Source of the DNA: Bacteroidia bacterium
GTDB taxonomy: Bacteria > Bacteroidota > Bacteroidia > SXHM01
Assembly (NCBI GenBank): GCA_022072225.1
Contig: JAJVIC010000015.1
Span: 49,762 to 113,761 of the forward strand
Length of the DNA: 64,000 nt
Direction: 5' to 3'
The position numbers were made by a program, and so were the translations under genes. Positions 3,701 to 58,515 of the stretch are shown here, piece after piece. A model generated the notes under the pieces. It ran no database searches, was not told where the DNA came from, and saw nothing but the letters and a program-made list of their open reading frames with translations. Position 1 is the stretch's first letter; the number at the start of each line of letters is the position of its first letter.

Positions 3701-6700
3701 ATGTCAAACCACAAAATTTTCCGCCTGCTGGCTGCCGCAGCCGCATTGACTTTATTCATTGTTATAATTATTGGCTACAATGCCAAGACAAGAGAGAATC
3801 AGCGCGTAAATCCTGAGTTTGCACCCTACATCTCCGCCTTCACCTCGGGGCTCATCTCCTCCGAGTCCTCCATCATCGTTCGCCTTGCCAGCGACTATGA
3901 AAAAGCAGGTGCCCCCGGTGAAGAAATAAGCGAAGAACTCTTCGACTTCTCACCCGGCATCAGCGGCAAAACCTATTGGGACGATAAACGCACCCTGCGT
4001 TTCAAACCCGATGCCCCTTTGCCTTCCGGTGTTGATTTCACCGTCAGCTTCTACATCTCCAAACTGTTGGAGATGCCTCAGGGCCTGGAAACCTTTGAGT
4101 TTTACTTCACCGTTATTGAACAAAGTGCGGGTTATTACCGCGATGGCTTCAAACCCCTGAATAATGCCGACCTCCGTTGGTATAAGGCTTATGGTTTTAT
4201 GTCCACTTCCGATGTAAGCGACAACGAAAGTTTCGAGAAAATACTTTCGGCAAAGCAGAACGGTAAAAACCTTTCCATCAAATGGACTCACAATGCCGAC
4301 CGCAAAAAGCATGACTTTGTTATCGACAGCATTGAGCGCACCGAAAACGAGCAGAAAATAATCGTTACCTGGGATGGTGCTCCTCTCAACATCAAAGGCA
4401 AAGGCAGCGATACCGTTACCATTCCGGGCTTAAAAGATTTCCGTTTTGTAGAACATTATCTTGAACAAAGTGGAGAACAATACCTGCGTCTCCTCTTTTC
4501 CGACCCGCTTTTGTCAACCCAGAACTTAGATGGTCTTATCCGTTTTGCGGACGACAGTCCCCTGCGCTTTATTATTGAAGACAACGAAGTGCGTGTGTAT
4601 CCTGCATCGCGTTTGCGTGGTGTTAAAAACCTGATCATCGAGCCCGGAATCAGGAACAGTGCTGATTACAAAACATTGGTGAAAGACATTCTCGAGCTGC
4701 GTTTCGAAGAACTGAAACCCGCAGTGCGTTTATTAGGAGACGGTGTTATACTTCCCAACTCCAGCGGATTGATTTTTCCGTTTGAAGCCGTGAACCTGAG
4801 TGCTGTGGATGTAAAAGTGATTCGTATTTACGAAAATAACATTGCACAATTCCTGCAGGTAAACAGCCTTGATGGCACCAACCAGTTGAAGCGCGTAGGC
4901 CGCACCGTCTTCAAAAAGAAAATAGATTTAAAAACCCTGAATAAAACCGACTACGGAAAATGGAATGCCTTCTCACTCGACCTAGCCGGGTTGATAGAAA
5001 CCGAACCGGGTGCTATCTATAAAATAGAACTCAGCTTCAGGCAGGATTACTCGCTCTATAGCTGCGAAGGAGATGAAAAGAAAAATAAAGAACTGCAACC
5101 GCTGGAAGAAGAGGAAAACGAAGATGAAGACAGTTATTATGGTGATTATTATTACGATGATTACTATTATAATGACTACTACGAAGACGACTATTACTAT
5201 GAAGATGAATACTACGGTGACTACGATTACCGTCAACGCGACAATCCCTGCAATGCTGCGTATTATAACAACAACCGCAAGGTAAGCCGAAATATTCTTG
5301 CTTCTGATTTGGGAATAATTGCAAAAGCCGGTTCTGCAAAAACAATGAGCTTTGCCATTACCGATTTGCGCACCGCTAACCCGCTGCCCGGCATTACACT
5401 GGAGGTTTACGATTTTCAGCAACAACTCATCACCTCCGTAAAAACCAACAACAACGGCACTGCCGATGTGGAAGTTGCCCGCAAACCTTTTCTACTCGTT
5501 GCAAAAAACGGTCGTCAGCGCGGCTACCTGAAACTGGATGACGGCTCATCACTTTCACTCAGTAAGTTTGATATTTCCGGTCAGCCCGTGCAGAAAGGAC
5601 TGAAAGGATTTATCTATGGTGAGCGCGGTGTATGGCGCCCCGGTGATTCATTATACCTTGTATTCATTCTCGAAGACAAGGAGAAAACATTGCCCCTTAA
5701 TCATCCTGTAACCCTCGATTTGGTAAACCCGCAGGGACAGATTGTGAAACGCATCACGCAATCAACCGGTGTGAATGGCATTTACAACCTGAGCACCGCA
5801 ACGGATAACAATGCGCCCACCGGAACATGGACAGCAAATGTAAGAGTGGGTGGCGCCTTGTTCAGTAAAAACCTGCGCGTGGAAGCCATCAAGCCCAACC
5901 GCCTGAAACTGAAACTGGATTTCGCTACCGAAATGCTCTCGGTGGATAAACCCGACCAGGAAGGGTTACTTTCCGTGAAGTGGCTGCACGGGGCAACTGC
6001 CCGCAATTTAAAAGCAACAGTAGCAGTTACACTCACTGAAGCATCCACCTCCTTTGAGAAATTCAAAGAGTATGTTTTCACCGACCCCGTGAAAAGTTTC
6101 TCATCGGAAGAGCAAATCATCTTTGATGCAAAGATTAACGAGAAAGGTGAAGCGAAAATAAAACCTGCGCTCACTGTTCACGATGCTGCTCCCGGAATGC
6201 TGAAAGCAAGTTTCGTGAACCGTGTGTTTGAAGAAGGCGGTGATTTCAGTATCGACCGTTTCTCTATTCCGTATTCACCGTATGAATGTTATGTGGGCGT
6301 GAATGTTCCCGATGGCGATAAATACCGCAACATGTTGTTGGTTGATTCAACACATACGGTAGATTTTGTTTCTGTTTCTCCCGAAGGAAAAACATTGGGC
6401 AACCGCAAGGTGCAGATTGAGATTTATAAAGTGCAATGGAGTTGGTGGTGGGAGAGTGCCAACTACTACGGCTATTATGCCGGTAATTATAACAACAAAC
6501 TGTTTTACCGCGATACCATTACTACTGACGCATCAGGAAAAGGGAAATACAATTTCAAAATAGAGTATCCCGAGTGGGGAAGGTTTATGGTTCGCATCAC
6601 GGATTTGAAAGGCGGACACAGTGCCGGAAACGACATTTACCTTGACTGGCCGGGCTGGGCAAGCCGCTCGTATGACGATAACTCGGGCGCGAATATTCTT

Positions 6701-9337
6701 TCTTTCTCTTGCGATAAAGACAAGTATAATGTTGGTGAACTGGCTACACTTACTATTCCCACAGGCACAGAGGGCCGTGCATTGGTAAGCATTGAGTCGG
6801 GCAAGAAAGTAGTGCAGATGAATTGGGTGGAAGCGAAGAAAGGCGAAACAACATTCCAGTTTAAAATAACTCCGGAGATGGCTCCCAACGTGTATGCGCA
6901 TGTAACCTTATTGCAACCGCACTCACAAACAGCTAATGACTTACCTATTCGTATGTATGGTGTTATACCCATTTTTGTGGAAGACCCGAATACCATCCTG
7001 TACCCTGAAATGAGTATGCCGGAAGTATTGGCTCCTGAACAGGATGTTACTATTAAAGTGAAAGAGAAAAACGGCAAAGCAATGACTTATACCATTGCCG
7101 TGGTGGACGAAGGTTTGCTTGACCTGACCCGTTTTAAAACACCTGACCCGTGGAGTTCATTTTATGCGCGCGAAGCATTGGGTGTGCGCACCTGGGATAT
7201 GTATGATTTGGTACTGGGTGCGTATGGCGGAAAGATTGAACAGGCATTTGCTATCGGTGGTGATGAGGGCATAAACGGTAAGGGAAAAAACACCGCTAAC
7301 CGTTTCAAGCCCGTAGTAAAATTCCTCGGACCTTTTAAACTGGAGAAAGGTAAATCGGCATCGCACACTTATAAAATGCCAAACTATGTAGGCTCTGTGC
7401 GCACGATGCTGATTGCAGGACAGGATGGTGCTTACGGAACGGATGAAGAAACAACTCCCGTTCGCAAACCGGTGATGGTACTGGCTACCTTGCCGCGCGT
7501 AGTTGGTCCGGGTGAAACGGTGAAACTTCCTGTAACAGTTTTCGCGATGGAGAAAAACATTAAGAATGTGAAAGTGGAAGTTTCAACAAATGAGAAATTC
7601 ACCGTGGTTGGAAATAAAGCGCAGAATATTTCTTTTGCCGAGCCGGGCGATGATGTGATTTATTTTGAATTGGATGTAGTGAAAACGGTTGGTATTGGCA
7701 AGGTAAAAGTTATTGCTACGAGCGGTAATGAACGTGCCGAGCACACCATTGAAATTGAGGTACGCAACCCCAACCCGAAAGAGGTGGATTATGTAGAAGC
7801 CGCTGTGGAAGCCGGAAAAACATGGGAGAGTGCCTACGCACTTCCCGGTGTGGATGGCACGAACAAAGGCACGATTGAATTTTCGAACATGCCTCCGCTC
7901 GACCTTGGCAGAAGACTGAAAGATCTGATTGAATATCCGCACGGTTGTGTGGAGCAAACTACTTCTGCTGCATTCCCGCAGTTATTTCTTTCGGATGTAA
8001 TGGAACTGGATAACAGAGTAAAACCTAAGATTGAGGAAAACATCAAAGCAGCTATTCACCGCCTGAGAAGTTTTCAGTATTCGGATGGCGGGTTGAGTTA
8101 CTGGCCCAACGGAACCGAATCAAGTGACTGGGGAACTTCATATGCCGGACATTTCTTGTTGGAAGCCGAAGCAAAAGGTTATTCATGGCCCGAAGGAATG
8201 AAAGCAAAATGGAAAAATTACCAGAGTAAAATTGCACGCAACTGGTCGCCTGTTACTGATTCGCGCTCTGCGTATTATTACCGCTATGAAGACAATGTGC
8301 AGGCCTATCGCCTTTACACATTGGCACTTGCAAAAGCACCTGAACTGAGCGCCATGAACCGTTTGCGCGAACGTCCTGCGCTTTCGCAACAGGCACGCTG
8401 GAGATTGGCTGCTGCATACATTCTTGCAGGTCAGCCCGAAGTTGCAACACAGCTGGTGAAAGACCTGAATATTTATGTTCCTGACTACAACGAAATGGCG
8501 TATTCGTATGGAAGTGCTACCCGCGATGAAGCCATGATTTTGGAAACAATGGTTTTATTAAACCGCAGGAACGAAGCTATTCCGCTGATGAAAAAAATAT
8601 CTGCGGCATTGTCGGCACAGCGTTGGATGTCAACACAGGAAACAGCATACTGCCTGATTGCGATGAGCAAATTTGCAGGAACAAACGGAACTTCAACACA
8701 AATGAAATATCAATATGTGATGAACGGAACTTCTTCTGAAACCATCACTACCAAGCTCCCTGTTTCGCAGGTGGACATGAAGGTAAAAGGTGATGCCGGA
8801 GGAAAACTGAAAGTCGTTAACCAGGGAGATGGTATCTTGTATGTTCGTATGACATTGGAAGGAATTCCTGCTGCAGGCAATGAAACTTCGGCAGAGAATA
8901 ATCTGAAAATGAACATCACCTATAAGAAAATGAATGGCGAAGTGCTTGACATCAGTCGCCTTGAACAGGGAACTGATTTTATAGCGGAGGTGAGCATTAC
9001 TAACCCGTCTATAACATCGTACTACCAAAACATGGCTTTGTCACAGGTATTTCCTTCGGGCTGGGAGATTCATAACACCAGAATGGATGAAGCCGAAAAT
9101 GTAAACCTGAAAGGCACAAGCACGCCAACGTATCAGGATATACGTGATGACAGGGTTTATACCTATTTCAATGTCAGCTCAGGTTGGACGGTAACCTATC
9201 GTGTATTGCTGAATGCTGCCTACCTTGGTGAGTTCTATTTACCTGCCCAAAGCTGCGAGGCGATGTATGACGGACACATCAATGCACGGAAAGCGGGTAA
9301 ATGGGTTAAGGTGGTGAGGGCGGGGGAGGCGTTGTAA
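3701..9337 (+). CDS. Bacterial alpha-2-macroglobulin family protein (thioester-containing, 1878 aa)
   Basis: Thioester motif GCVEQ is present (CVEQ at nt 7946-7957). Size and MG-domain-like architecture fit, and the gene sits directly upstream of pbpC. The N-terminus has a hydrophobic anchor and no lipobox Cys. Confidence 0.9.
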   Translation: MSNHKIFRLLAAAAALTLFIVIIIGYNAKTRENQRVNPEFAPYISAFTSGLISSESSIIVRLASDYEKAGAPGEEISEELFDFSPGISGKTYWDDKRTLRFKPDAPLPSGVDFTVSFYISKLLEMPQGLETFEFYFTVIEQSAGYYRDGFKPLNNADLRWYKAYGFMSTSDVSDNESFEKILSAKQNGKNLSIKWTHNADRKKHDFVIDSIERTENEQKIIVTWDGAPLNIKGKGSDTVTIPGLKDFRFVEHYLEQSGEQYLRLLFSDPLLSTQNLDGLIRFADDSPLRFIIEDNEVRVYPASRLRGVKNLIIEPGIRNSADYKTLVKDILELRFEELKPAVRLLGDGVILPNSSGLIFPFEAVNLSAVDVKVIRIYENNIAQFLQVNSLDGTNQLKRVGRTVFKKKIDLKTLNKTDYGKWNAFSLDLAGLIETEPGAIYKIELSFRQDYSLYSCEGDEKKNKELQPLEEEENEDEDSYYGDYYYDDYYYNDYYEDDYYYEDEYYGDYDYRQRDNPCNAAYYNNNRKVSRNILASDLGIIAKAGSAKTMSFAITDLRTANPLPGITLEVYDFQQQLITSVKTNNNGTADVEVARKPFLLVAKNGRQRGYLKLDDGSSLSLSKFDISGQPVQKGLKGFIYGERGVWRPGDSLYLVFILEDKEKTLPLNHPVTLDLVNPQGQIVKRITQSTGVNGIYNLSTATDNNAPTGTWTANVRVGGALFSKNLRVEAIKPNRLKLKLDFATEMLSVDKPDQEGLLSVKWLHGATARNLKATVAVTLTEASTSFEKFKEYVFTDPVKSFSSEEQIIFDAKINEKGEAKIKPALTVHDAAPGMLKASFVNRVFEEGGDFSIDRFSIPYSPYECYVGVNVPDGDKYRNMLLVDSTHTVDFVSVSPEGKTLGNRKVQIEIYKVQWSWWWESANYYGYYAGNYNNKLFYRDTITTDASGKGKYNFKIEYPEWGRFMVRITDLKGGHSAGNDIYLDWPGWASRSYDDNSGANILSFSCDKDKYNVGELATLTIPTGTEGRALVSIESGKKVVQMNWVEAKKGETTFQFKITPEMAPNVYAHVTLLQPHSQTANDLPIRMYGVIPIFVEDPNTILYPEMSMPEVLAPEQDVTIKVKEKNGKAMTYTIAVVDEGLLDLTRFKTPDPWSSFYAREALGVRTWDMYDLVLGAYGGKIEQAFAIGGDEGINGKGKNTANRFKPVVKFLGPFKLEKGKSASHTYKMPNYVGSVRTMLIAGQDGAYGTDEETTPVRKPVMVLATLPRVVGPGETVKLPVTVFAMEKNIKNVKVEVSTNEKFTVVGNKAQNISFAEPGDDVIYFELDVVKTVGIGKVKVIATSGNERAEHTIEIEVRNPNPKEVDYVEAAVEAGKTWESAYALPGVDGTNKGTIEFSNMPPLDLGRRLKDLIEYPHGCVEQTTSAAFPQLFLSDVMELDNRVKPKIEENIKAAIHRLRSFQYSDGGLSYWPNGTESSDWGTSYAGHFLLEAEAKGYSWPEGMKAKWKNYQSKIARNWSPVTDSRSAYYYRYEDNVQAYRLYTLALAKAPELSAMNRLRERPALSQQARWRLAAAYILAGQPEVATQLVKDLNIYVPDYNEMAYSYGSATRDEAMILETMVLLNRRNEAIPLMKKISAALSAQRWMSTQETAYCLIAMSKFAGTNGTSTQMKYQYVMNGTSSETITTKLPVSQVDMKVKGDAGGKLKVVNQGDGILYVRMTLEGIPAAGNETSAENNLKMNITYKKMNGEVLDISRLEQGTDFIAEVSITNPSITSYYQNMALSQVFPSGWEIHNTRMDEAENVNLKGTSTPTYQDIRDDRVYTYFNVSSGWTVTYRVLLNAAYLGEFYLPAQSCEAMYDGHINARKAGKWVKVVRAGEAL

Positions 9338-16106: not shown

Positions 16107-16210
16107 AAATATTCATAACTTTTTAATGCTGATTTCGTATCTATTCCGCTTTTTACAAATACGGATTATAAAATACTTGATTTTATTAATGGTTTTTGCC
16201 TGCTTTTGCT

Positions 16211-16218
16211 TAATTTTG
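16211..16218 (+). promoter_or_regulatory. Candidate -7 box TAATTTTG for the giant adhesin gene
   Basis: It matches TAnnTTTG and lies 21 nt upstream of the ATG at 16239. It sits inside the TTG-extended ORF, which argues for the 16239 start. Confidence 0.3.
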
Positions 16219-16238
16219 TTGTGAATATCAAGCTATTA

Positions 16239-19200
16239 ATGTCTAAAAAATTATCCGGACTTTTAATCTTTATTTTACTTGCCGGTTCCCTGCACGCGCA
16301 GTACCTGTTGGAACCTGCTCAGCCTGAATACTATTCTTTTGCAAAAAAATCGGAACAACGGATTACACAGGAAGTCACAGACTTTATTCCTGCTACATTC
16401 CGAAACCACCCTGAATATGCCGTAAATCCTTACAATGCGCCTTGCGAAAATTGCACGGAATTAATTGACAGAAGAAAAGAGGATGAGCGCTATTTTGTAG
16501 AAAACGGAACTAAAGGCCAGCAAATTTATGTGCAGAAATCCTATGGCCCAATGCATTTAAAAGATGAGCAGGGTAACTGGATAAGTCTTGATACCCGCCT
16601 GAAACCTCTTTCACAAAGTCGTTTTGCGGCAAAAAATCAACAATTCCCGGTGAGTATTAATGCCGAAGAAGGCTTTGCAATGATTGAAGTTACCGGACAC
16701 AGCATTAAATTTAATTCGCAACTGGAGTTGCTGCACAAAAACAGTTCGGGTACAATTACTTCGCTTGGAAATGCAACATGGACCAACTACACAGCAGGCG
16801 ATAATGGGTTAATCGTTTACAACCTTTGGCCTGGAATAGACATGACTATTCAGGCTTATCAAGGTCAGGTAAAAACAAATTTTACAATCAGAGAAAGGTT
16901 GAATATCACTGCCGGCTGGCTGATGATAAAAGATAAACTCGCATTCGGTGATGATTTGCAGGCCGACTGGACTTTAGCAACTCAAACAGGTGCAAATACT
17001 TTTGACGGAAACCTTTCGTTGCGTAACTCAACCGGTCAGGAATATTTTACCATAGCCCGGGCTTTTATGAATGATGCTTCAGAAGCAAGTGAGCCTTATT
17101 ACCTTAGCTATGAACTAAGCGATTCTAAAGACTTTTTTGTTTACGTTCCTGTTGATTGGCTTAATGCATCTGAAAGAATTTACCCGATAACAATTGACCC
17201 GCTGGTTTCTGCGTCTAATACCCTTCCTCAGGCTTCAATAATTGGTTCCGGTGACGGAAATGGCTGGACAAACGGATGCCCTTACACCATCAGCGTTCCT
17301 GTTCCCACAAACTGTACGGTAACTGATCTTCAGTGGTCGTTTAACTATAATGCCATCGGAACCTGTTTCAGAAATCAGGGGGCTGTAGATTTTATGCTTG
17401 GTGCATGCCGCAGCCCTGACCAAAACGGATTTTACTGGTATTGCAATAATCCAACGGCCGGGGCCTGCAATGGCAACAATATCTCCATTTTCTCGGATGT
17501 TGATCCTTGCATTCCTAACCCACAATGTGCTTCGTACAACCTTTCGTTAACGATGAATTTTTATCGCAATAATCCGTTTGGTGGAAATACTTGCAATAAC
17601 CTTTGCATTGCTTCAGGAAGTCCATGGACAGTTACTGTTATTGGCAGAACAGTTGAAATACCAACCATTACAGGCAATCAAACCATTTGCATCGGCAACA
17701 GCGCAACCATTACTGCCAGTGGCAATTATGGTGTTCCGCCTTATACTTATTCGTGGAGTAACGGAGCTACAGGAACAACTATTACGGTTACTCCCAACAC
17801 TACTACAACGTATACGGCAACCATAACAGATGCCTGCAATCAAACGGCTACTGCAAGCTCAACAGTAACCGTAACTCAAAATACAAATCCGGGTTTTACC
17901 ATTACACCCAATCCTGTTTGTGCGGGGCAACCTGTTGCAATCACGGGCCTGGGGGCAGGCCCTTCCAGCGCTTACGACTGGTTGTTTCCAAGTTCAACAA
18001 CGCCTACGGTAAACAATAATAAAACACCTTCGGTTACTTACAATACCGCAGGTACTTATAACATCACGCTGAACTATGCACAGGGCGCCTGCATATTCCC
18101 CTTAGTGCAAACTATTGATGTAACACCCAACGGAGGAGCACCTTCGGTAACGGTTGCCGCAAATCCTGCGGGAGCAATCTGTGCCGGAACAAGTGTAACG
18201 TTCACGGCAACACCCACAAATGGCGGAGGTGCGCCAACGTATCAATGGCAGGTGAATGGTGTAAATGCAGGTAGCGGAGGCGCAACATTTACTTCATCAA
18301 CCTTAAACAACGGAGATGCGGTAACAGTAATTATGACTTCCAGTTCCAACTGTGTTTCACCGGCAACCGGAACTTCTACGGCAGTAGTCATGATAGTTAA
18401 CCCAACGGTTGTTCCTTCGGTAACTATTGCAGCCAATCCTTCGGGAGCAATTTGTGCGGGAACGAATGTTACGTTTACGGCTACACCAACCAATGGAGGC
18501 GGAGCGCCAACCTATCAATGGACTGTAAACGGAACCAATGTAGCAACAGGAGCAACATTTACTACCAATTCATTAAATAACGGAGATGTTGTAAGGGTAA
18601 CACTGACATCAAATGCAAATTGTGTTTCACCAGCTACTGCCAATTCGAATACTATTAACATGACGGTAAATGCTCCGGTTACACCATCAGTGAGCATCAC
18701 GGCAAATCCGAATACACCTGTTTGTCCGGGTACAAGCATTACCTTTACTGCAACCCCTACCAACGGAGGCGGAGCACCAACCTATCAATGGCAGGTAAAC
18801 GGTGCTAATGCCGGAAGCGGAGGTGCAACATTTACAACTACTACATTAAATGATGGAGATGTGGTTCATGTGATACTAACATCCAATGCAGCCTGTGTTT
18901 CTCCGGCAACAGCTACCTCTAATGATATTACCGTTTCCATTTTACCGGCACCTGTTCCTTCTGTATCCATTGCGGCAAATCCGGCAGGAGCAATCTGTGC
19001 CGGAACCAGTGTAATATTTACCGCAACGCCAACCAACGGGGGCGGAGCGCCAACCTATCAATGGCAGGTAAACGGAACCAATGCCGGAACCGGAGCTACG
19101 TTTACATCATCTTCTTTAAATAATAATGATGCGGTTACTGTAGTGATGACCTCCAATGCAACCTGTGCTTCACCTGCTACAGCAACATCTAATACCATTA

Positions 19201-21866
19201 CAATTTCTGTAACAACCAACTTAGTACCTTCGGTAAGCATTGCGGCAAACCCTGCCGGAATTGTTTGTGCCGGAACCAGTGTAACGTTTACAGCAACCCC
19301 AACAAATGGAGGCGGAGCGCCAACCTATCAATGGACTGTAAACGGGGTCAATTCAGGAACAGGAGCAACATTTACTTCAACAACACTTAATAATAATGAT
19401 GTGGTTGCAGTGGTGATGACTTCCAACGCAACCTGCGTTTCCACACCAACTGCAAATTCCAATACCATCAACATGCTGGTTCTGCCTATTGTTGCACCAA
19501 CGGTAACTATCGCGGCAAATCCCGCAGGAGCAATCTGTGCAGGAGCCAGCGTTACTTTTACAGCAACACCGACTAACGGAGGAGTTCCAACGTATCAATG
19601 GCAGGTGAACGGAACCAACTCAGTAACCGGAGCAAGCTTTACATCCGCATCACTGAACAACGGAGATAATGTAACGGTAATCATGACTTCCAATGCTGCC
19701 TGTGTTTCGCCCAACACGGCCACATCCAATACTATTACCATGGTTGTTACGCCAACCGTTACGCCTTTGGTTACTGTTGCAGCAGTTCCTTCTGGACAAA
19801 TATGCACCGGAACCAGTGTAACCTTTACAGCTACCCCAACTAACGGAGGCGGAGCACCAACGTATCAATGGCAGGTGAACGGAATCAATGCAGGAACAGG
19901 CGCTACGTTTACTTCTGCTGCATTGAATGATAACGATGTTGTTACCGTTACCATGACCTCCAATGCAACCTGTGCTTCACCAATAACCGCAAGTTCAGCG
20001 CCTGTTACAATGGATGTAAGCACAACAGTAGTTCCTTCTATTTCCATTGCAGCAGCACCATCCAATGTTATTTGCAGCGGAACCAATGTTACGTTTACGC
20101 CCACCACAAGCGGAGGCGGAAATGGCCCGACTTATCAATGGACAGTAAACGGAGTTAATGCCGGAACCAATTCAACTTTTTCATCATCTACACTCAATGA
20201 CAACGATGTTATTGAAGTAGTGATGACTTCTGCCAGCACGTGTGCCACTCCGCAAACGGCCACATCCAATCAGGTGGTGATGACGGTTGACCAGGTGGTT
20301 ACACCTTCGGTTACCATTGCAGATTTTCCAAGCGGACCGCAATGTGCCGGAACAAACATTACCATTACACCCACTCCTGTAAACGAAGGAACTAATCCGG
20401 TTTATGAATGGTTCATCAATGGAGTAAGCTCAGGAAACTCAACGTCACTTTCTTCTTCATCCTTTAATGATGGCGATGTGGTTTCGGTTATTCTTACTTC
20501 TGATGCCGTGTGTGCTACTCCGGTAACGGCTGCATCCAATTCCATCACTATTGCTATTGATCAGGTAATTAATCCAAGTGTTACGGTTGCTGCTGTTCCG
20601 GCAGGAACAATCTGTTTCGGAGAACAGGTAACATTTACGGCAACGCCAAGCAGTGCAGGAGCAAACCCAAGCTATCAATGGACCGTAAACGGAACCAACG
20701 CGGGAACAGGCGATACCTTTTCATCGTCTTCCTTAAATGATGGCGATGTGGTGGTGGTTACTCTCACTTCATCTTCGCCTTGCGCTAATCCTACTACAGC
20801 AACATCCACACCTATTGCAGCGGATGTAAATACATACGTTACACCGAGTGTAACCATTGTGGCATCGCCTTCAGGGCCGGTTTGCACAGGGGCAACGGTT
20901 ACCTTTACGGCAAGCGGAACAAATGGCGGAAGCGCAGCAGCCTATCAGTGGCAGATAAACGGAGTTAACGTAGGAACGGGAACAACTTTTTCTTCCAGTA
21001 CATTTAATGAAGGCGATGTTGTTTTCGTCATACTTACTTCGAGCGAGCCCTGCACCAACGGAAACCCGGCCACATCCAATCAGATTGTTATGACGCTGGC
21101 ACAGCCTATTGCAGTTACTGCTTCTGATGACGTAACGGTTTGTTCCAGCGCACCCATTTCTTTAGATGCGCAGGCAACAGGCGGTGACGGAATTTACAGC
21201 TACACCTGGAATAACGGTGCAGGAAACGGCAGTACGGTAAGTGTTAATCCTGCACAAACAACAACGTATACGGTAACCGTAAGCGATCAATGCGGTTCCA
21301 CACCGGCAAGTGATGATGTTACCGTTACCGTTAATCAGCCCGTTGCAAGTTTTGGGTTTACACCCCAGCAACCAGACATGAATGATTCGGAAGTGCGTTT
21401 TGAAAACCAATCGGAAGGTGGTGTTGATTATTTCTGGGATTTTGGAGACGGAACTACCAGCACGGATGTAAATCCTGTACACAATTTCGGCTCGCCCGGT
21501 GATTATACCGTTACGCTAACGGTTACTTCCGCGGGTGGCTGCGTTGAAACCACTACCTATATTATAACGGTTGATGATGTAATGGCTTTCTGGGTTCCCA
21601 GCGCCTTTACTCCCAATGGTGACGGACTGAACGACACCTTCTTTATGAACGGAACGATGGACAAACCTTATGTGATGCGTGTTTACAACCGCCTTGGTTC
21701 TGAAATTTATTTCACCGATAATTCAGTGCCCTGGAATGGTGCAATCTTCAATGTGGGCGATGTAGTGCAAAACGGTGTTTACGTTTATGAAATTGATTTA
21801 GACGATTCCGATTTCAAAGGAAAAACCGTTGTGGGAAGGGTTACGGTTATCAGGGACGGAAGATAA
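16239..21866 (+). CDS. Giant secreted repeat adhesin with a T9SS type B (CHU_C / gliding-motility-associated) C-terminal sorting domain
   Basis: Signal peptide MSKKLSGLLIFILLAGSLHAQ. There are 11 tandem ~90-aa Ig-like modules and a PKD-like module (FWDFGDGTTS). The C-terminus carries FWVPSAFTPNGDGLNDTFF, typical of the type B sorting domain. Confidence 0.85.
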   Translation: MSKKLSGLLIFILLAGSLHAQYLLEPAQPEYYSFAKKSEQRITQEVTDFIPATFRNHPEYAVNPYNAPCENCTELIDRRKEDERYFVENGTKGQQIYVQKSYGPMHLKDEQGNWISLDTRLKPLSQSRFAAKNQQFPVSINAEEGFAMIEVTGHSIKFNSQLELLHKNSSGTITSLGNATWTNYTAGDNGLIVYNLWPGIDMTIQAYQGQVKTNFTIRERLNITAGWLMIKDKLAFGDDLQADWTLATQTGANTFDGNLSLRNSTGQEYFTIARAFMNDASEASEPYYLSYELSDSKDFFVYVPVDWLNASERIYPITIDPLVSASNTLPQASIIGSGDGNGWTNGCPYTISVPVPTNCTVTDLQWSFNYNAIGTCFRNQGAVDFMLGACRSPDQNGFYWYCNNPTAGACNGNNISIFSDVDPCIPNPQCASYNLSLTMNFYRNNPFGGNTCNNLCIASGSPWTVTVIGRTVEIPTITGNQTICIGNSATITASGNYGVPPYTYSWSNGATGTTITVTPNTTTTYTATITDACNQTATASSTVTVTQNTNPGFTITPNPVCAGQPVAITGLGAGPSSAYDWLFPSSTTPTVNNNKTPSVTYNTAGTYNITLNYAQGACIFPLVQTIDVTPNGGAPSVTVAANPAGAICAGTSVTFTATPTNGGGAPTYQWQVNGVNAGSGGATFTSSTLNNGDAVTVIMTSSSNCVSPATGTSTAVVMIVNPTVVPSVTIAANPSGAICAGTNVTFTATPTNGGGAPTYQWTVNGTNVATGATFTTNSLNNGDVVRVTLTSNANCVSPATANSNTINMTVNAPVTPSVSITANPNTPVCPGTSITFTATPTNGGGAPTYQWQVNGANAGSGGATFTTTTLNDGDVVHVILTSNAACVSPATATSNDITVSILPAPVPSVSIAANPAGAICAGTSVIFTATPTNGGGAPTYQWQVNGTNAGTGATFTSSSLNNNDAVTVVMTSNATCASPATATSNTITISVTTNLVPSVSIAANPAGIVCAGTSVTFTATPTNGGGAPTYQWTVNGVNSGTGATFTSTTLNNNDVVAVVMTSNATCVSTPTANSNTINMLVLPIVAPTVTIAANPAGAICAGASVTFTATPTNGGVPTYQWQVNGTNSVTGASFTSASLNNGDNVTVIMTSNAACVSPNTATSNTITMVVTPTVTPLVTVAAVPSGQICTGTSVTFTATPTNGGGAPTYQWQVNGINAGTGATFTSAALNDNDVVTVTMTSNATCASPITASSAPVTMDVSTTVVPSISIAAAPSNVICSGTNVTFTPTTSGGGNGPTYQWTVNGVNAGTNSTFSSSTLNDNDVIEVVMTSASTCATPQTATSNQVVMTVDQVVTPSVTIADFPSGPQCAGTNITITPTPVNEGTNPVYEWFINGVSSGNSTSLSSSSFNDGDVVSVILTSDAVCATPVTAASNSITIAIDQVINPSVTVAAVPAGTICFGEQVTFTATPSSAGANPSYQWTVNGTNAGTGDTFSSSSLNDGDVVVVTLTSSSPCANPTTATSTPIAADVNTYVTPSVTIVASPSGPVCTGATVTFTASGTNGGSAAAYQWQINGVNVGTGTTFSSSTFNEGDVVFVILTSSEPCTNGNPATSNQIVMTLAQPIAVTASDDVTVCSSAPISLDAQATGGDGIYSYTWNNGAGNGSTVSVNPAQTTTYTVTVSDQCGSTPASDDVTVTVNQPVASFGFTPQQPDMNDSEVRFENQSEGGVDYFWDFGDGTTSTDVNPVHNFGSPGDYTVTLTVTSAGGCVETTTYIITVDDVMAFWVPSAFTPNGDGLNDTFFMNGTMDKPYVMRVYNRLGSEIYFTDNSVPWNGAIFNVGDVVQNGVYVYEIDLDDSDFKGKTVVGRVTVIRDGR
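18141..21100 (+). repeat. Eleven tandem ~270-276-bp coding repeats inside the adhesin gene
   Basis: The protein module ...ICAGTSVTFTATPTNGGGAPTYQWQVNGxNAGTGATFTSxxLNNGDxVTVxMTSNAxCxSPxTAxSN... recurs 11 times. The first seven copies are also very similar at the DNA level. Confidence 0.9.
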
Positions 21867-48948: not shown

Positions 48949-49770
48949 TTATTTTAATTCAAAATCATCGGCATCCATAGCAGCAGGAAATTTATCACGA
49001 TAGTCCTGCAAAAATTTCCGGGAAAGTGTAATGGTTTCGTGCGTGTTCTCATTTGGTTTAATGCTGCTTAGTTTTTCTCCAAGCGGATTGTAAACTGCGC
49101 TGTCGCCCGAATAATCCACATCGTGTCCGTCACCACCAATGCGGTTTACAGCAACAACATAGCTTTGATTTTCTACTGCACGCGCAGGAATCAACATGTT
49201 CCATGCCAGGCTTCTTCGTGCAGGCCAGTTGGCAACATACAGAAGCAAATCATATTCCAGAGAATTGTGTTCAACTTCTGACTTTTCACTTTTGATTTTT
49301 GACTTTACTTTATTTCTGCTCCACACCGGGAAACGCAAATCGTAACAAATCAAGGGACAGATTTTCCAGCCTTTTAAAGTTGTAATCAATTTTTTATCTC
49401 CGGCTGTAAAATGGTTTTGTTCGTTTGCCATTCGAAAAAGATGACGTTTGTTGTAGGTTTCAAAACTTCCGTCAGGCTGCATCCAGATTAAGCGGTTATA
49501 GTTCTTACCGTTTTCTTTAATCATCAGACTTCCTGTGATGACACAGTTTTTTTCTTTCGCTTTTTCTTTCAGCCAGATTATTGATTTTCCCTGCATGGTT
49601 TCGGCTACTGCAGTATTCATAGTAAACCCGGTGCTGAACATTTCAGGGAGAACTATCAAATCTGTTTGTTCTTTAACAGCGTTCAATAACTCATCGAACA
49701 TGGAGATATTCTTCTCCACACTTTCCCAGTGAAGTTGTGTTTGAACGAGTGTTATTTTTAAGTCTTCCAT
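48949..49770 (-). CDS. Carbon-nitrogen hydrolase (nitrilase superfamily), YafV-like omega-amidase
   Basis: Contains LPEMFSTGF (catalytic Glu), KRHLF (Lys) and ICYDLRFPVWSRN (Cys). Confidence 0.85.
   Translation of the reverse strand: MEDLKITLVQTQLHWESVEKNISMFDELLNAVKEQTDLIVLPEMFSTGFTMNTAVAETMQGKSIIWLKEKAKEKNCVITGSLMIKENGKNYNRLIWMQPDGSFETYNKRHLFRMANEQNHFTAGDKKLITTLKGWKICPLICYDLRFPVWSRNKVKSKIKSEKSEVEHNSLEYDLLLYVANWPARRSLAWNMLIPARAVENQSYVVAVNRIGGDGHDVDYSGDSAVYNPLGEKLSSIKPNENTHETITLSRKFLQDYRDKFPAAMDADDFELK
49275..49308. repeat. Family E short tandem element in frame inside the amidase gene (encodes KVKSKIKSEKSE)
   Basis: The minus strand reads TAAAGTCAAAAATCAAAAGTGAAAAGTCAGAAG. The element sits between the conserved FPVWSRN and YDLLLYVANWP blocks. 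Confidence 0.5.
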
Positions 49771-49777
49771 TTATATT

Positions 49778-50188
49778 TTATTCATTTGGTAATGATGCAT
49801 ATAATTCATTAACCAATGTCTTTTGTCCCTCTTTAAATATATTGATGCAATTAAAGTTTATCAAAATACCCTTTGGCTTCTTTAACATCTGCATATATGA
49901 CAATAATACTGCATCATGTATCGGATGAAAATCATCTGTAGATTTTAATTCAACACATAATATATCTTCAACCAAAATATCTAATCTTAGTTCGGTATCT
50001 AATTCTAATCCTTTGTATTCAATCGGAACCCATAATTGCTGTTTGTAATTTATTCCCTGCAAGGCTAATTCTCTGACAAAACATTTTTCATAAACACTTT
50101 CCAATAAACCTGGACCAAGTTGCTTATGAACTTCAATAGCACAACCGATTACTTTATATGTCAGGTTGTCTAAATATTTCTTTGTCAT
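49778..50188 (-). CDS. GxxExxY-family protein (PD-(D/E)XK-like small protein)
   Basis: GPGLLESVYEKC contains the GxxExxY motif, followed by RLDILVEDILCVELK. The protein is about 136 aa from the internal Met. The upstream 48 codons of ORF 49778..50332 cover the palindrome. The DNA is AT-rich. Confidence 0.8.
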   Translation of the reverse strand: MTKKYLDNLTYKVIGCAIEVHKQLGPGLLESVYEKCFVRELALQGINYKQQLWVPIEYKGLELDTELRLDILVEDILCVELKSTDDFHPIHDAVLLSYMQMLKKPKGILINFNCINIFKEGQKTLVNELYASLPNE

Positions 50189-50208
50189 CTCTATCTTCAA
50201 TTTTTTTA

Positions 50209-50288
50209 CCACATAGACACATAGGAAACATAGTGTTTTCACATAGAATCTATGTGCTTTTCTTATGTGCCCTATGTGTCTATGTGGT
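50209..50288. repeat. Nested ~80-bp palindrome (ACCACATAGACACATAGG ... CACATAGAATCTATGTG ... CCCTATGTGTCTATGTGGT) upstream of the GxxExxY gene
   Basis: The outer arms are reverse complements and the central 17-mer is itself palindromic. Confidence 0.75.
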
Positions 50289-50300
50289 TCAATGCAATTT

Positions 50301-51455
50301 TTAAATCTTACAAAGCTTCTCCGCTGCTGCACTCAACACCTCTTCGCTTTTAGCAAAACAAAACCGTATGTATTTATTATCCACTCCCTCGTGATAAAAA
50401 ACAGAGATGGGAATAGATGCCACTTTATTTTGTTTGGTAATACGTACCGCAAAGTCGGTATCCTTTTCTCTTGAAATGCTATCATATTTCACTAACTGAA
50501 AATACGTTCCTGCAGAAGGCACAAAACTGAAACGCGAATTTTTTATCAATGAATTAAAGTAGTCCCGTTTCTGCTGATAAAATGTGGGAAGACTTAAATA
50601 GTTATTTTCTTCTTTCAGAAAATCTGCCAACGCCATTTGTATCGGTGTGTTGCAACTGAAAACAATGTATTGGTGCGCCTTGCGGTATTCACTCATTAAA
50701 TTTTCAGGACCTACCACATAACCCATTTTCCAGCCGGTGTTGTGAAAGGTTTTGCCGAATGAAAACACGGCCAGACTCCGCTCGGCAAGTTTCGGAAACC
50801 TGCATACACTCTGGTGTTGCTGTCCGTCAAAAATTATATGCTCATATACCTCGTCACTTAAAATAATGATGTCGGTACCGTTGGTCAGTTTTTCCAATTC
50901 CTGCATATCGGCTGCGCTTAACACACTGCCCGTTGGATTATGCGGTGTATTAATGATAATCATTTTTGTGCGCGGAGAAACTAATTTTCGAACCTCGCTC
51001 CAGTCGATATGAAAATCGGGTTGTTTCAACTGAATGTAAACGGGAACACCTCCGTTCAGTTCAATGGAAGGGGTGTAACTGTCGTAGGCAGGCTCAAACA
51101 CAATCACTTCATCGCCTGCGCGAATCAAAGCAGCAACAGCGGTGTAGATTGCAAGTGTTGCTCCGGCTGTTATGGTTACTTCGGTACCCGGATTGTAGGT
51201 TGTTGAATAGAGTTTTTCAATTTTTCCGGCAATGGATTCGCGCAGACCGATAAACCCGGGCATGGGTGCATACTGATTAAAACCTTTCTTCATGTAGTGC
51301 TGCACCTTGTCAAATAAATCCTGCGAACTGCTGTAATCCGGAAAGCCCTGCGAAAGGTTGGTTGCACCAACTTCGGCAGCCAGTTTTGACATTACCGTAA
51401 AAATGGTAGTTCCTGTTTTGGGCAGTCGTGATTGTATTTCTCCGGGAAATTGCAT
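50301..51455 (-). CDS. PLP-dependent aminotransferase, YbdL-like methionine/glutamine aminotransferase
   Basis: LSQGFPDY, NPHNPTG-like INTPHNPTG and SFGKTFHNTGWKMGY (PLP lysine) are present. Confidence 0.85.
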   Translation of the reverse strand: MQFPGEIQSRLPKTGTTIFTVMSKLAAEVGATNLSQGFPDYSSSQDLFDKVQHYMKKGFNQYAPMPGFIGLRESIAGKIEKLYSTTYNPGTEVTITAGATLAIYTAVAALIRAGDEVIVFEPAYDSYTPSIELNGGVPVYIQLKQPDFHIDWSEVRKLVSPRTKMIIINTPHNPTGSVLSAADMQELEKLTNGTDIIILSDEVYEHIIFDGQQHQSVCRFPKLAERSLAVFSFGKTFHNTGWKMGYVVGPENLMSEYRKAHQYIVFSCNTPIQMALADFLKEENNYLSLPTFYQQKRDYFNSLIKNSRFSFVPSAGTYFQLVKYDSISREKDTDFAVRITKQNKVASIPISVFYHEGVDNKYIRFCFAKSEEVLSAAAEKLCKI

Positions 51456-55127: not shown

Positions 55128-55135
55128 TAGTTTTG
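55128..55135 (+). promoter_or_regulatory. Candidate -7 box TAGTTTTG for the 55155-57665 operon
   Basis: It matches TAnnTTTG and lies 20 nt upstream of the ATG at 55155. Confidence 0.3.
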
Positions 55136-55154
55136 AATTACAAAATCATTTACT

Positions 55155-56267
55155 ATGGATTCAATCATCTATAATTTTATGGGAGACCGCTATATAAACG
55201 GTAGGTCTGAATCAATGGCCTTGCGCTCTGCTTACCTATTGGGTGACGGGGTTTGCTCTGCCGGAAACTCTTATGGTACCATTACCTATGACTCATTTTT
55301 TAAAACCATGCGCATTGAGGATAAGGTAAGGCATATTGAAAAACGCTCGCCCGATGAGTTTAAGAGTATGGGAGTATCAGCGGAACAGTTTATTCAAATG
55401 CTGAAGCTGCATAAAAAACTAAAACATCCCACCCCGCAGCAAATAATAGCGCATAAAAAAATGGTAAACGCGCTTGAAACACTCTGGAAATTGGATCATC
55501 AGGATGCGCTGAACAGAATGATGACTACCGGTCTGCCGCAATTAGCGCCACTTACTGAAACCGATGAACTTAATATGTTGGGTGCTGATAATAATAATCC
55601 CGAGCGCGATGATTTTGACAGTTTTCCCTTAAGCAAATCGCTTACCCTTGATTTTGGTGAAAATGCCAACAACGATATCTTTTTCCTTACCCTTGAATTT
55701 ATGGTTGACCTGTTTCAGCAAAAGTTGCCTGTAGACCGCAAACCGTTTTTTGTTGAACAGGTTTTTACGTTTCCTAACCTTAACGTTTTAAATGTTGACG
55801 AACTGCGAACCGTAAAGGCTAACGTAAAAAAAGAAGCCGACCCTTTTCGCCAAAAAGTGAACGAATGGATTAAAGCCTGCAACGAAAAATCACCGGAGCA
55901 AAGCCGCAACCTGTTTTATAATGAGCTGCTGCCGCTTACCAAACCCCTGAACCAAAAATTAGAGCAAGACCCTATTTTGCAGCATACCGGCAGGCTTTAT
56001 ACCCAAAAGGTAGAAGGGTATGTAGTTATGGGCGAAATGCCCCTGCTTACCGTTTGGGCATTTTTCCTTTTCAACGGGGTTATTCCCGAAGCTACCCGTA
56101 AGGTATTGGAAGAATACTCGCAAAAACCGGAATACCAAAACCGCAGAGTACCCTTTCTGGCCAATAAATTTACAGAAAATGCAAATGACCTTACTACCGA
56201 AATTACTACCCCCGAAGACAATACAACACCACCGTTGCCCACACGCAAAACATTAGACATAGATTAA
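55155..56267 (+). CDS. Hypothetical 370-aa protein, first gene of the NYN operon
   Basis: It is a long clean ORF with host-like composition and ends 21 nt upstream of the NYN gene. I recognise no signal peptide, TM segment or domain. Confidence 0.6.
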   Translation: MDSIIYNFMGDRYINGRSESMALRSAYLLGDGVCSAGNSYGTITYDSFFKTMRIEDKVRHIEKRSPDEFKSMGVSAEQFIQMLKLHKKLKHPTPQQIIAHKKMVNALETLWKLDHQDALNRMMTTGLPQLAPLTETDELNMLGADNNNPERDDFDSFPLSKSLTLDFGENANNDIFFLTLEFMVDLFQQKLPVDRKPFFVEQVFTFPNLNVLNVDELRTVKANVKKEADPFRQKVNEWIKACNEKSPEQSRNLFYNELLPLTKPLNQKLEQDPILQHTGRLYTQKVEGYVVMGEMPLLTVWAFFLFNGVIPEATRKVLEEYSQKPEYQNRRVPFLANKFTENANDLTTEITTPEDNTTPPLPTRKTLDID

Positions 56268-56288
56268 TATTCACTAAAAAACTCAGCC

Positions 56289-57665
56289 ATGAAAAACGAA
56301 TCGTATAACTATTTTCCGGTAAACCTGATTCAAAGTGAGCATTTAATTGAGTTTACAGGACTAAAAGATTTTAACCGCTTTTTGCTTACCCAGCGCATAA
56401 GCACCATTTTTGTACTTAACAACGAGCAGGGCGAAGCCGCCCATTTTGCCGTTAGCTACAAGGGCGGTTTGCTGCGTCAGGCAACCCTGGGTTTTAAAAC
56501 CATGGAAGATTATATGGAAGCGGTGCGCGACCAGTTTCCCGACTCAGAATCATTTTATACTGCTCGACAGATGGGTTACAAAACTTACAGCGACTATAAG
56601 CTGGTAAGCGAAGCCGGAATAACCAACAACGATGAGTATAAAGCCATGAAAGAAAAAGGCTTTATACAAGGCTATGACGAGTATAAACAGGCTACCGCTG
56701 CCGAAAATGCAGCCTTTGCAAACCCTTTTGAATTGTATAAACACGCAATTGAACAGCAGTTTGAAAACTTTGCCGAATATAAAACCGCCACCGCCAAAGG
56801 TTTTGACAACGGAGGCATTTACCGCACTGCCACTGCCAAAGGTTTTGACACGGCTGCCGATTTTAAAGCAGCCTCTGACTGCGGCTTCGACTCTGCATTG
56901 GATTTAAAAACCGCCCGCAAACTACAAATCCGCGACCGTGCCGATTTTCATCGCTACAACGACCTTGAGTTTTTGAAAAACACGCAGGCCACCCACGACC
57001 AGCGCCTGCTACTTACCCTGCTTAGCAAATTACCCGAAGGCAAAAAGGTTTCTATCAACAAACTGGAAGAACTGCTTGCCAAAGCCCTGCCCGAATACCG
57101 CTATGCCGATACCAATGAAATGCCCAAATGGTTTACCATCGCTTTTAACGGAAAGCAAAGCATTGTAGATTTTTTGATTAGCAATAATGCCGTAAAAAAA
57201 TACGGACACTTTGATGCCGATGGTGAATTTTTTGAAACCAAAACCATACAAAATCGCAAAGTAGTTATTGACGGCAGCAACGTAGCCCACAACTCACAAG
57301 GCAACGAAAAATCAAAAGCACGGGTTGCCAACATAATAGCCCTTACTAAAGAATTGCAAAAGCGAGGCTTTACCGACATTTCGGTTATAGCCGATGCCGC
57401 CCTGCGCCACCGCCTTGAAGACAAAGACAAACTGGGTGAATTGAAAAAATTAGTGGACTACCTGGAAGCACCTGCCGAAACACAAGCCGATATGTTTATT
57501 CTCCAATACGTAAAGATGCAGCACTGCCTGCTGGTGAGCAATGACCTTTTCCGCGATTGGAAAAATATTGACCCCTGGGTAGCACATAATATAGACTACT
57601 ACCGCATCGCCTTTCTTATTAAAGAAGATGCCGTATTGCTGCCCGATTTAGACAAAAAGGACTAA
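56289..57665 (+). CDS. Zc3h12a/Regnase-like NYN-domain ribonuclease with an N-terminal array of 14-residue repeats
   Basis: The C-terminal ~125 aa (nt 57255-57623) contain KVVIDGSNVAHN, GFTDISVIAD, QADMFILQY and LLVSNDLFRDW. These parallel the VVIDGSNVA / HTDITVFVP / YDDRFIV / VVSNDTYRD blocks of Regnase-1 as I recall them. Confidence 0.75.
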   Translation: MKNESYNYFPVNLIQSEHLIEFTGLKDFNRFLLTQRISTIFVLNNEQGEAAHFAVSYKGGLLRQATLGFKTMEDYMEAVRDQFPDSESFYTARQMGYKTYSDYKLVSEAGITNNDEYKAMKEKGFIQGYDEYKQATAAENAAFANPFELYKHAIEQQFENFAEYKTATAKGFDNGGIYRTATAKGFDTAADFKAASDCGFDSALDLKTARKLQIRDRADFHRYNDLEFLKNTQATHDQRLLLTLLSKLPEGKKVSINKLEELLAKALPEYRYADTNEMPKWFTIAFNGKQSIVDFLISNNAVKKYGHFDADGEFFETKTIQNRKVVIDGSNVAHNSQGNEKSKARVANIIALTKELQKRGFTDISVIADAALRHRLEDKDKLGELKKLVDYLEAPAETQADMFILQYVKMQHCLLVSNDLFRDWKNIDPWVAHNIDYYRIAFLIKEDAVLLPDLDKKD

Positions 57666-57698: not shown

Positions 57699-58052
57699 TC
57701 ATTTTCCTGCCAGCAAATCAACCACATTTTGCAGGGTTTTAAGCTGCGCACGCAGTTCTGCATTTTCTTTTTCAAGTTCAGATCTTCGTGTGGCAGGGTT
57801 GCCCTTGGAGGCATGCATATCGGGAGGTAACCAACCCGCAAAGTCTGCAAAAAAAATATGATTCATGGCCTTGCAAAATTCCCATAAAATATAAGTTTGC
57901 ACAGAGGTATTGTTCATCAATCTTTTTACTGTTGCCCTGTTGCGGCTCATTTTACGGGCAATAACTGAATAGTTAAGGTTTTGCTGCTTCATTTCCCAAC
58001 GCAGCATGTTGCCAGTGTCTAAATTTTTAACTCTGTTTCCTTTCATTTTCAT
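57699..58052 (-). CDS. Small helix-turn-helix protein with a C-terminal coiled coil
   Basis: NYSVIARKMSRNRATVKRLMNNTS is HTH-like. The C-terminus SELEKENAELRAQLKTLQNVVDLL is leucine-zipper-like. Confidence 0.6.
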   Translation of the reverse strand: MKMKGNRVKNLDTGNMLRWEMKQQNLNYSVIARKMSRNRATVKRLMNNTSVQTYILWEFCKAMNHIFFADFAGWLPPDMHASKGNPATRRSELEKENAELRAQLKTLQNVVDLLAGK

Positions 58053-58059
58053 TTTTATT

Positions 58060-58265
58060 TGTTATAGTTTGTTGTTGTTATACCATATTTTGTTTCCTCA
58101 TTACCATGCTTTGTTGTTTTATTGCTATGTTCTGTTGTTTTATTGTTGTCTTTAGTTGTTGTTATGATATTCTCTGGTGTTTTAAAACTATATTTTGTTG
58201 TCTTTTTATAATGATTTGTTGCATTTATGCTGTATTTTGTAGGCTTTATGACACTTTTTTACTTA
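58060..58265. repeat. About 10 degenerate T/G-rich repeats with ~21-bp periodicity (approx TTATnnnnTnTTTGTTGTT) upstream of the HTH gene
   Basis: TTAT/TTAC/TTAA anchors occur at 58062, 58078, 58101, 58119, 58140, 58162, 58182, 58206, 58225 and 58246. The strand composition is strongly skewed: T and G on the plus strand. Confidence 0.6.
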
Positions 58266-58515
58266 ACCGATGGTTAAAAATCAGGTAATAGAGGTAAGTT
58301 AGTGTTGCAGTAAAAGCTAATGTAGTTTTGAAAACACCTGATTTACGACATGGACTCTAACTATTTAGTTTATGAAAGCTAAATACAATCATTCATATTA
58401 TGGTATAGTTTAGTAAAGGCTATGCTTTTATTACGGAATAGTAAAAATTGTAAAAACGCCTGTATTTATTTGTTTGCCTTTTACCTAAGTTGATAAATAT
58501 GTTTGCAATACTTAT

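Follow-up and report, generated by a model that had tools for sequence, protein, structure and literature searches.

What does the gene for a Regnase-like nuclease do in the chromosome of a Bacteroidia bacterium, where it follows, in an apparent operon, a gene of no recognised family? The pair lies in the 64,000-nt window analysed here, that is, the whole stretch from position 49,762 to position 113,761 on the forward strand of contig JAJVIC010000015.1 (GenBank assembly GCA_022072225.1; GTDB lineage Bacteroidota, Bacteroidia, SXHM01). An original prediction, drawn from the sequence alone, held that these two genes, here called A and B, couple an RNase effector to an unknown partner in a toxin/immunity, abortive-infection or RNA-processing module. 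Our answer, which we put forward tentatively, is that A and B may form a self-contained two-component RNA-cleavage module of Bacteroidota, with B as the nuclease and A as a non-enzymatic targeting partner. Coordinates below are positions in the window unless a locus label (L0xx) is given.

A predicted Regnase-type nuclease at the end of gene B

The two genes and the nuclease domain are located as follows.

55155..56267, + strand: gene A, open reading frame (ORF) with an ATG start, 370 amino acids (aa)
56289..57665, + strand: gene B, ORF with an ATG start, 458 aa
57252..57665, + strand: predicted NYN (PIN-like) metal-dependent endoribonuclease domain of the Zc3h12a type, B residues 322-458, from PF11977, PDB profile matches and Foldseek

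Both ORFs were recovered on the same strand at exactly the positions first proposed, 21 nt apart. For A, the public gene call (P0121) is shorter, at 362 aa, and starts 8 codons downstream of 55155; we favour the 370-aa frame because the N-terminus of the A family is conserved (MxxIxFN).

The C-terminal domain of B had been read as a NYN RNase of the Regnase-1/MCPIP1 type, and Pfam, PDB profile and fold comparisons all agree with that reading. The PF11977 match spans B residues 322-455 and profile positions 2-144 of 154 and scores 61.4 bits (E 1.1e-16), well over the gathering score of 23, and the family was found in all of the B homologues listed. A profile built from twenty-seven B sequences matched ZC3H12B, ZC3H12C, ZC3H12A and KHNYN among PDB sequences at E 2e-7 to 3e-5, with the motifs RxVVIDGSNVA, (D)DxF and VSNDxxRD in register. 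The AlphaFold2 model of B, made from the same 27-sequence alignment, has a mean predicted local distance difference test score (pLDDT) of 90.2. Foldseek aligned its NYN domain to ZC3H12C/MCPIP1 with E 1.7e-7, a template-modelling (TM) score of 0.69-0.72 (normalised to the target), a root-mean-square deviation (rmsd) of 2.4-2.7 Å and 27-30% identity. The four sequence blocks from which the domain was originally recognised (KVVIDGSNVAHN, GFTDISVIAD, QADMFILQY and LLVSNDLFRDW) are all present in the B translation.

The acidic active site of MCPIP1 consists of D141, D225, D226, D244 and D248, plus N144 (PMC5499597). D328, D401, D419 and D423 had been proposed as the acidic catalytic residues of B; their numbering is correct and they align with the MCPIP1 site. 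All 75 full-length B homologues have D328, N331, D401, N418 and D419, so that the equivalents of MCPIP1 D141, N144, D226, N243 and D244 never change. Position 423 is D in the window protein and E, D or Q across the family, and the equivalent of D225 is A400, which is always Ala in the B family. The window protein thus keeps four of the five active-site Asp residues. Because this catalytic core is intact across homologues, B is predicted to be an active Mg2+/Mn2+-dependent endoribonuclease.

By profile and by fold, B therefore belongs to the same catalytic family as the eukaryotic Zc3h12a-type NYN RNases (Regnase-1/MCPIP1, ZC3H12B/C, KHNYN, N4BP1; PF11977). It resembles Regnase-1 and KHNYN in that the nuclease is joined to separate binding domains; in those proteins, partner proteins select the targets (PMC5499597). 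B differs from them in that CCCH zinc finger, KH, UBA and CUBAN domains are all absent and the protein stops at residue 458, right behind the NYN domain. No zinc-finger family matched B at E up to 1, and B is therefore not a Regnase/MCPIP protein proper. Its N-terminal 320 aa have no counterpart in Regnase-type proteins, and the constant Ala at the D225 position is a further difference. Bacterial PF11977 members are catalogued under ‘Unknown function in bacteria’ in Matelska et al. (2017, PMC5499597), and B belongs to this catalogued, uncharacterised group.

The same nuclease type also turned up outside Bacteroidota. A contig binned as Promethearchaeota archaeon (L078:3029-5038) encodes a 670-aa fusion of a PQQ/BamB-type β-propeller and a Zc3h12a-type NYN domain. 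The latter shares 49% identity with the NYN domain of the window, roughly the level seen among Bacteroidota B proteins, which suggests either that the nuclease domain has passed between phyla or that the contig is mis-binned.

Conservation and co-divergence of the pair

We sampled loci with a three-motif scan of one genome per GTDB species, which gave seventy-nine loci. Seventy-seven of these are Bacteroidota with a full-length-type B. The module was present in about 100 of 185,579 species representatives, a motif-based lower bound. Carriers include Chitinophagaceae, Flavobacterium, Chryseobacterium, Sphingobacteriaceae, Cytophagia-type bacteria and Bacteroidales/Marinifilum, and among them are the cultured strains Flavobacterium aureirubrum J3, Flavobacterium sp. 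SM2513, SUN046 and RSB2_4_14, and Parapedobacter flavus CGMCC 1.10938.

Across the seventy-nine loci, BLAST and iterated hidden Markov models (HMMs) on crude ORF calls identified 107 A-family ORFs. Of the 73 evaluable Bacteroidota loci, 69 have one or more A genes immediately upstream of B and on its strand; the median gap is 18 nt. The pair had been expected to recur beyond this genome, and it does so in several Bacteroidota classes and between unrelated flanks: the 308 flanking ORFs fall into 260 clusters. Since the flanks differ while the A-B adjacency holds, the A-B block travels or persists as a unit. As a reverse check, three A proteins were retrieved by the A profile and not via B, and all three adjoin a B gene.

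The number of A genes varies. Among the forty-nine loci with at least 6 kb of upstream sequence, four have no A, twenty-nine have one, eight have two, four have three, one has four and three have five; in two loci an extra A lies downstream of B. Tandem A copies in one locus are just 22-53% identical, which marks them as old paralogues that have been maintained. Divergence in A tracks divergence in B (r = 0.83 over 300 locus pairs), with A changing about twice as fast as B (mean identity 22% vs 38%).

No description of the pair was found in the profile libraries or in the literature searched, in line with the proposal that the system had not been described. In addition, none of the searched literature, including the consulted passages of PMC5499597, mentions a partner gene, tandem arrays, a C-terminal peptide or a 14-residue repeat. 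The module is apparently an undescribed one, in which a known nuclease domain sits in a new, conserved two-family system.

Gene A and its terminal peptide

A had been described as an orphan. When 1.84 billion representative proteins were searched exhaustively with an HMM, A instead fell into a divergent family of 410 representative clusters (E up to 1e-3); the word-indexed search badly under-counted this family, with three clusters from a single sequence and eight from a 54-sequence profile. The best 150 of the 410 clusters are nearly all standalone proteins of 340-400 aa, without fusions. The family is specific to Bacteroidota and fast-evolving. Mean column identity is 22%, and there is no invariant residue besides M1, which makes a catalytic role for A unlikely.

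Nothing consistent was found for A in Pfam, NCBIfam, PHROGs, PADLOC or PDB sequences. The PADLOC matches were scattered, at E 0.003 or weaker, and none occurred in more than two of fifty-four members. Matches of residues ~222-283 to ApoA-I/perilipin relatives (E 0.0025-0.03) were rejected as noise from amphipathic-helix composition, and homology of A to the N-terminal domain of B was rejected at an hhalign probability of 0.1.

The most informative feature of A is a short peptide at the very end of the protein.

56244..56264, + strand: A tail, residues 364-370, RKTLDID, a conserved terminal peptide of the form [RK][RK]-x-[ILV]-x-[ILV]-D

This motif ends every full-length A copy, tandem paralogues included, in fifty-one loci, and it is kept although the A proteins are only ~20% identical. 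It is preceded by a variable linker rich in T, P, E and D, which is modelled with low confidence (pLDDT about 29-34).

Some single metagenome-assembled genomes (MAGs) carry two B loci. One has a tail-positive and a tail-negative A-B module (L004 and L061), a second has an orphan B and an A-B-A locus (L041 and L059), and a third has an extra B fragment (L073) cut at the contig end, in addition to L063. Such genomes suggest that paralogous subtypes coexist and may be insulated from each other.

Architecture of the N-terminal region of B

The B family comprises at least 154 clusters, all of 451-487 aa and conserved end to end. Upstream of the nuclease domain, B is divided as follows.

56289..56483, + strand: small N-terminal α/β domain (β-β-α-β-β-β), B residues 1-65, from the AlphaFold2 model
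56484..56984, + strand: array of eleven short helices forming a 14-residue helical repeat, B residues ~66-232, from self-similarity and the model
56985..57248, + strand: winged-helix-like segment (α-β-α-α-β-β), B residues ~233-320, from model topology and the family consensus

Residues 1-65 are the least conserved part of B. Within the tail-positive group, for which domain-wise values were computed, mean pairwise identity rises along the protein, from 0.27 in the N-terminal domain to 0.33 in the repeats, 0.41 in the winged-helix-like segment and 0.53 in the NYN domain. The repeat helices are 9-11 residues each, run from 72-80 through 217-227 and are spaced ~14 residues apart in the model, with the consensus G[FY]-x4-[DE][YF]-x2-A-x3. 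BLOSUM self-similarity across twenty-seven homologues gave peaks at lags of 14 (+0.15), 28 (0.0) and 42, against a background of about -0.9.

The segment at residues ~233-320 appears winged-helix-like in the model, with secondary structure over ~236-317, and it carries the conserved motif LLSKLxxGKKVSINKL; no fold match in PDB or BFVD supported the label. The N-terminal parts of B had no match in Pfam (for the repeats, at E up to 1), NCBIfam, PHROGs or PDB sequences, and outside the NYN region B had no significant fold match in PDB or BFVD. The N-terminal 320 aa had been treated as unmatched sequence; they have no library matches, but they are conserved and confidently modelled (pLDDT 90), and so are more than a spacer.

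Proposed mechanism

If A and B act as a two-component RNA-cleavage module, the N-terminal region of B (α/β domain, repeat array and winged-helix-like segment) would offer a binding surface for RNA or for a partner, and A would set what, or when, B cuts. A may dock on B by the shared C-terminal peptide, probably onto the N-terminal domain or the repeat array; the alternating hydrophobic pattern of the tail would suit β-strand addition to the α/β domain of B or capture by the repeats. The tandem A paralogues, one to five per locus, could serve as alternative specificity or sensor subunits that compete for one nuclease. By analogy, the logic would be that of ZAP recruiting KHNYN and of Roquin cooperating with Regnase-1 in animals. 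The likeness is one of logic only, since B has just the catalytic domain in common with KHNYN and Regnase-1, and A shows no relationship to ZAP, Roquin or any known family. Most likely, the module selectively destroys particular RNAs, and we lean slightly towards a conflict role, directed at foreign or phage RNA, over regulation of endogenous RNA. The sequence data establish the gene order and its recurrence, the co-divergence, the intact active site, the domain structure of B and the tail motif; the docking of A on B, an adaptor or sensor role for A, RNA as the substrate and the biological role are inferences.

Several observations weigh against this account. A divergent clade of thirteen loci, mostly Bacteroidales-type and with a B of 476-487 aa, has neither the linker nor the tail peptide, so the peptide is not universally required; the B proteins of this clade have no compensating insertion and show small indels of 1-4 residues only. 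In four loci (L041, L047, L064, L075) the active site of B is intact and the surrounding ±8 kb holds no A, six-frame translation included. The neighbours of these four orphan B genes are ordinary genes, and B can evidently function, or be tolerated, alone. Finally, the AlphaFold2 model of A, made from an alignment of eight sequences, was poor (pLDDT 53.9), and a fold search with it gave no PDB match below E = 2.

A possible cellular RNA-processing role

A lineage-specific housekeeping or regulatory function is rather unlikely in our estimate, but it survives better than the other alternatives. Here B would mature or degrade cellular RNAs, and the A paralogues would be substrate-specific cofactors or regulators, comparable, as an analogy, to the adaptor proteins of other bacterial RNases. 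The flanks of the module consist of ordinary genes for metabolism and translation, B is well conserved from one end to the other, and the B tree is arranged largely by taxonomy, suggesting old vertical inheritance.

The layout of B points the same way. Protein-only RNase P (PRORP) combines PPR repeats, a zinc-binding central domain and an NYN-like nuclease, and B likewise has a helical-repeat array, a connector and a C-terminal NYN-type metallonuclease. Full-length Foldseek comparison gave a loose alignment to PRORP1/2 (TM ~0.25, rmsd >15 Å), and the PRORP Pfam model PF16953 scored 27.3 bits on B, below its gathering score of 39.1. In contrast to PRORP, the repeats of B are 14-residue single helices and not 35-residue PPR hairpins, no PPR match was found, and B has no recognisable zinc-binding central domain. 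The alignment reflects a common general layout and does not show homology of the repeats.

Against a housekeeping function stands the sparse distribution, which, even as a lower bound, makes the module dispensable for most Bacteroidota and rules out an essential RNase P role. A protein that evolves as fast as A, has no invariant residues and occurs in zero to five copies would also be unusual as the cofactor of a fixed cellular substrate, and no conserved RNA gene lies beside the module in the window (no Rfam family scored above threshold anywhere in it). In the broader sense, an RNA-processing or RNA-targeting module fits best of the three options originally offered; abortive infection is possible but has no positive evidence.

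Immunity and the search for a defence signature

We consider it unlikely that the module is an immune system outside defence islands, in which diversified A sensors would each recognise a different foreign RNA or protein and recruit or activate B by the docking peptide. If this were so, the module would correspond in bacteria to the adaptor-guided antiviral RNA decay of animals (ZAP-KHNYN, Roquin-Regnase-1), and might be related to it by evolution.

The suggestion that the pair might lie in defence islands did not hold up. We scanned 145 non-redundant flank proteins from about forty loci, with ~110 further flank clusters outside the scan. The scanned flanks were overwhelmingly housekeeping, mainly EF-Tu/EF-G, PrmA, PEPCK, PFK, queuosine synthesis, BshC, histidine kinases and TonB receptors, and PADLOC found essentially one type I restriction-modification locus among the 145 proteins. 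No integrase or transposase family was among the twenty-five most frequent flank families shown.

Our slight preference for a conflict role has to be set against these and related results. The scanned flanks had no excess of defence or mobile-element genes, B itself had no match in PADLOC-DB 2.0, and no B relatives were found in IMG/VR viral contigs; a fold search of BFVD returned giant-virus NYN/PRORP proteins only. Average-linkage clustering of B largely follows taxonomy (the misfits are L032, L035 and L047), which suggests old, mainly vertical inheritance with many losses and not rampant transfer. A conflict role is nonetheless possible, in view of the sparse distribution, the fast evolution of A and its variable copy number.

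Toxin-antitoxin and coincidental pairing as less likely readings

A toxin-antitoxin or abortive-infection system, in which B would be a growth-arresting RNase toxin neutralised by A until infection or stress frees it, is quite unlikely. Such a system would account for the putative inhibitor gene coming first in an apparent operon with a short gap, for an RNase effector, for a faster-evolving A that co-diverges with B, and for the sparse distribution. The pair resembles type II systems of the VapBC type, which are also two-gene operons with a PIN-superfamily RNase second and a faster-evolving first gene. Unlike in those systems, the first gene here is often multi-copy and encodes ~370 aa in which neither a DNA-binding domain nor a known antitoxin domain was detected, and the nuclease is a 458-aa multidomain protein. 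Up to five diversified copies are hard to explain for an antidote, and the four loci in which B is intact and six-frame translation reveals no A within 8 kb have a nuclease without its supposed inhibitor. Nor is there a mobile-element or defence-island context or a PADLOC match, and inheritance is mostly vertical. The orphan B loci and the housekeeping flanks thus argue against a classical toxin-antitoxin system and remove the usual genomic signature of defence.

The proposed toxin/immunity relation is unsupported on the same grounds, namely the four loci that keep an intact B in the absence of A, and the large size of A, its multi-copy occurrence and its lack of a recognisable DNA-binding domain. 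In polymorphic toxin/immunity systems the immunity genes lie downstream of the nuclease, whereas the variable A genes lie upstream of B. Pfam gave no secretion or trafficking domain for B, and on visual inspection neither A nor B seems to begin with a signal peptide.

That A and B are unrelated neighbours paired by coincidence is highly improbable, and the co-occurrence data effectively refute it: no homology links the two families (hhalign probability 0.1), but they are adjacent on the same strand in 69 of 73 loci from at least four classes with non-conserved flanks, and they co-diverge at r = 0.83.

Significance

In animals, RNA-based immune regulation and antiviral restriction depend centrally on Zc3h12a-type NYN nucleases, whose bacterial relatives are listed as of function unknown. 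New here are a complete conserved bacterial module, a partner family with a common terminal peptide, partner arrays of variable copy number and a 14-residue helical repeat. As cultured strains carry the module, the function and targeting of bacterial Regnase-like RNases are directly testable. Should the partners prove to be interchangeable specificity subunits, the module would provide a compact model for adaptor-guided RNA decay; it would also illustrate a kind of conflict or regulatory system that escapes searches based on guilt-by-association with defence islands.

Promoter and neighbouring genes

Two further features border the pair.

55128..55135, + strand: TAgtTTTG box, a Bacteroidota-type -7 promoter element (TAnnTTTG), read from the sequence
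57699..58052, - strand: 117-aa helix-turn-helix (HTH)-like ORF, convergent with B, 33 nt from the B stop

The TAnnTTTG-like box foreseen ahead of the pair is present as TAgtTTTG, 19 nt upstream of the A ATG, and judging by its sequence and place it is probably the promoter of A; a sigma-70 consensus scan gave no enrichment in the box region (55128-55135). The left neighbour, expected to be a TonB-dependent receptor, is borne out as such by PF00593 and Plug (PF07715) matches together with CarboxypepD_reg domains, and it is divergently oriented. The small HTH gene anticipated on the right is there as an ORF of 117 aa, but it is convergent, and its HTH-like and coiled-coil matches are weak (E about 0.03-0.05). 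The HTH-like match is N-terminal, and the coiled coil, leucine-zipper-like, is C-terminal.

Upstream of this - strand gene lies a degenerate T/G-rich tandem repeat at 58109-58184 (period 21/11, ~3.7 copies, 73% matches, consensus CTTTGTTGTTTTATTGCTAT), within a T/G-rich tract of about 58060-58250; it overlaps a probably spurious 60-aa ORF at 58106..58288. The gene and the repeat had been noted next to the pair, and we ruled both out as core components, neither being conserved with the A-B module. Across the seventy-nine loci and the window, the HTH family has only nine ORFs. Homologues of the 117-aa protein adjoin A-B in a syntenic Flavobacterium group (L042, L045, L049, L053, L072) and in L010, and the family is absent from the closest relatives of the window, L001 and L002. 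The gene may be an occasional regulator, or simply syntenic.

One flanking family is common to different classes, and only one. A gene for an aminopeptidase P/M24 peptidase (~430 aa) lies within two genes of the module in two classes, namely in L027, L028 and L055 (Chitinophagales) and in L042, L045, L049, L053, L057 and L072 (Flavobacterium); this may be coincidental. In L075, a long non-coding stretch upstream of the orphan B contains four to five ~47-bp tandem direct repeats (L075:6420-6600; TATGTAATTACGAAGAGGCTCCCCAATAAGTTTTTCCGCC). They are not CRISPR repeats, because there are no spacers.

The wider surroundings in the window are ordinary chromosome, with genes for LeuRS, an aminotransferase, a C-N hydrolase, a fatty-acid desaturase, START and DUF2804 proteins and a CotH/type IX secretion system (T9SS) protein. 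The sole nuclease-like gene near the module is one of the PD-(D/E)XK_3 nuclease superfamily (PF13366, E 1.5e-35) at 49778-50332 on the - strand, between the C-N hydrolase and aminotransferase genes and overlapping the aminotransferase ORF by ~30 nt. The first third of the window holds two very large + strand ORFs, of 1878 aa at 3701-9337 and 1886 aa at 16206-21866.

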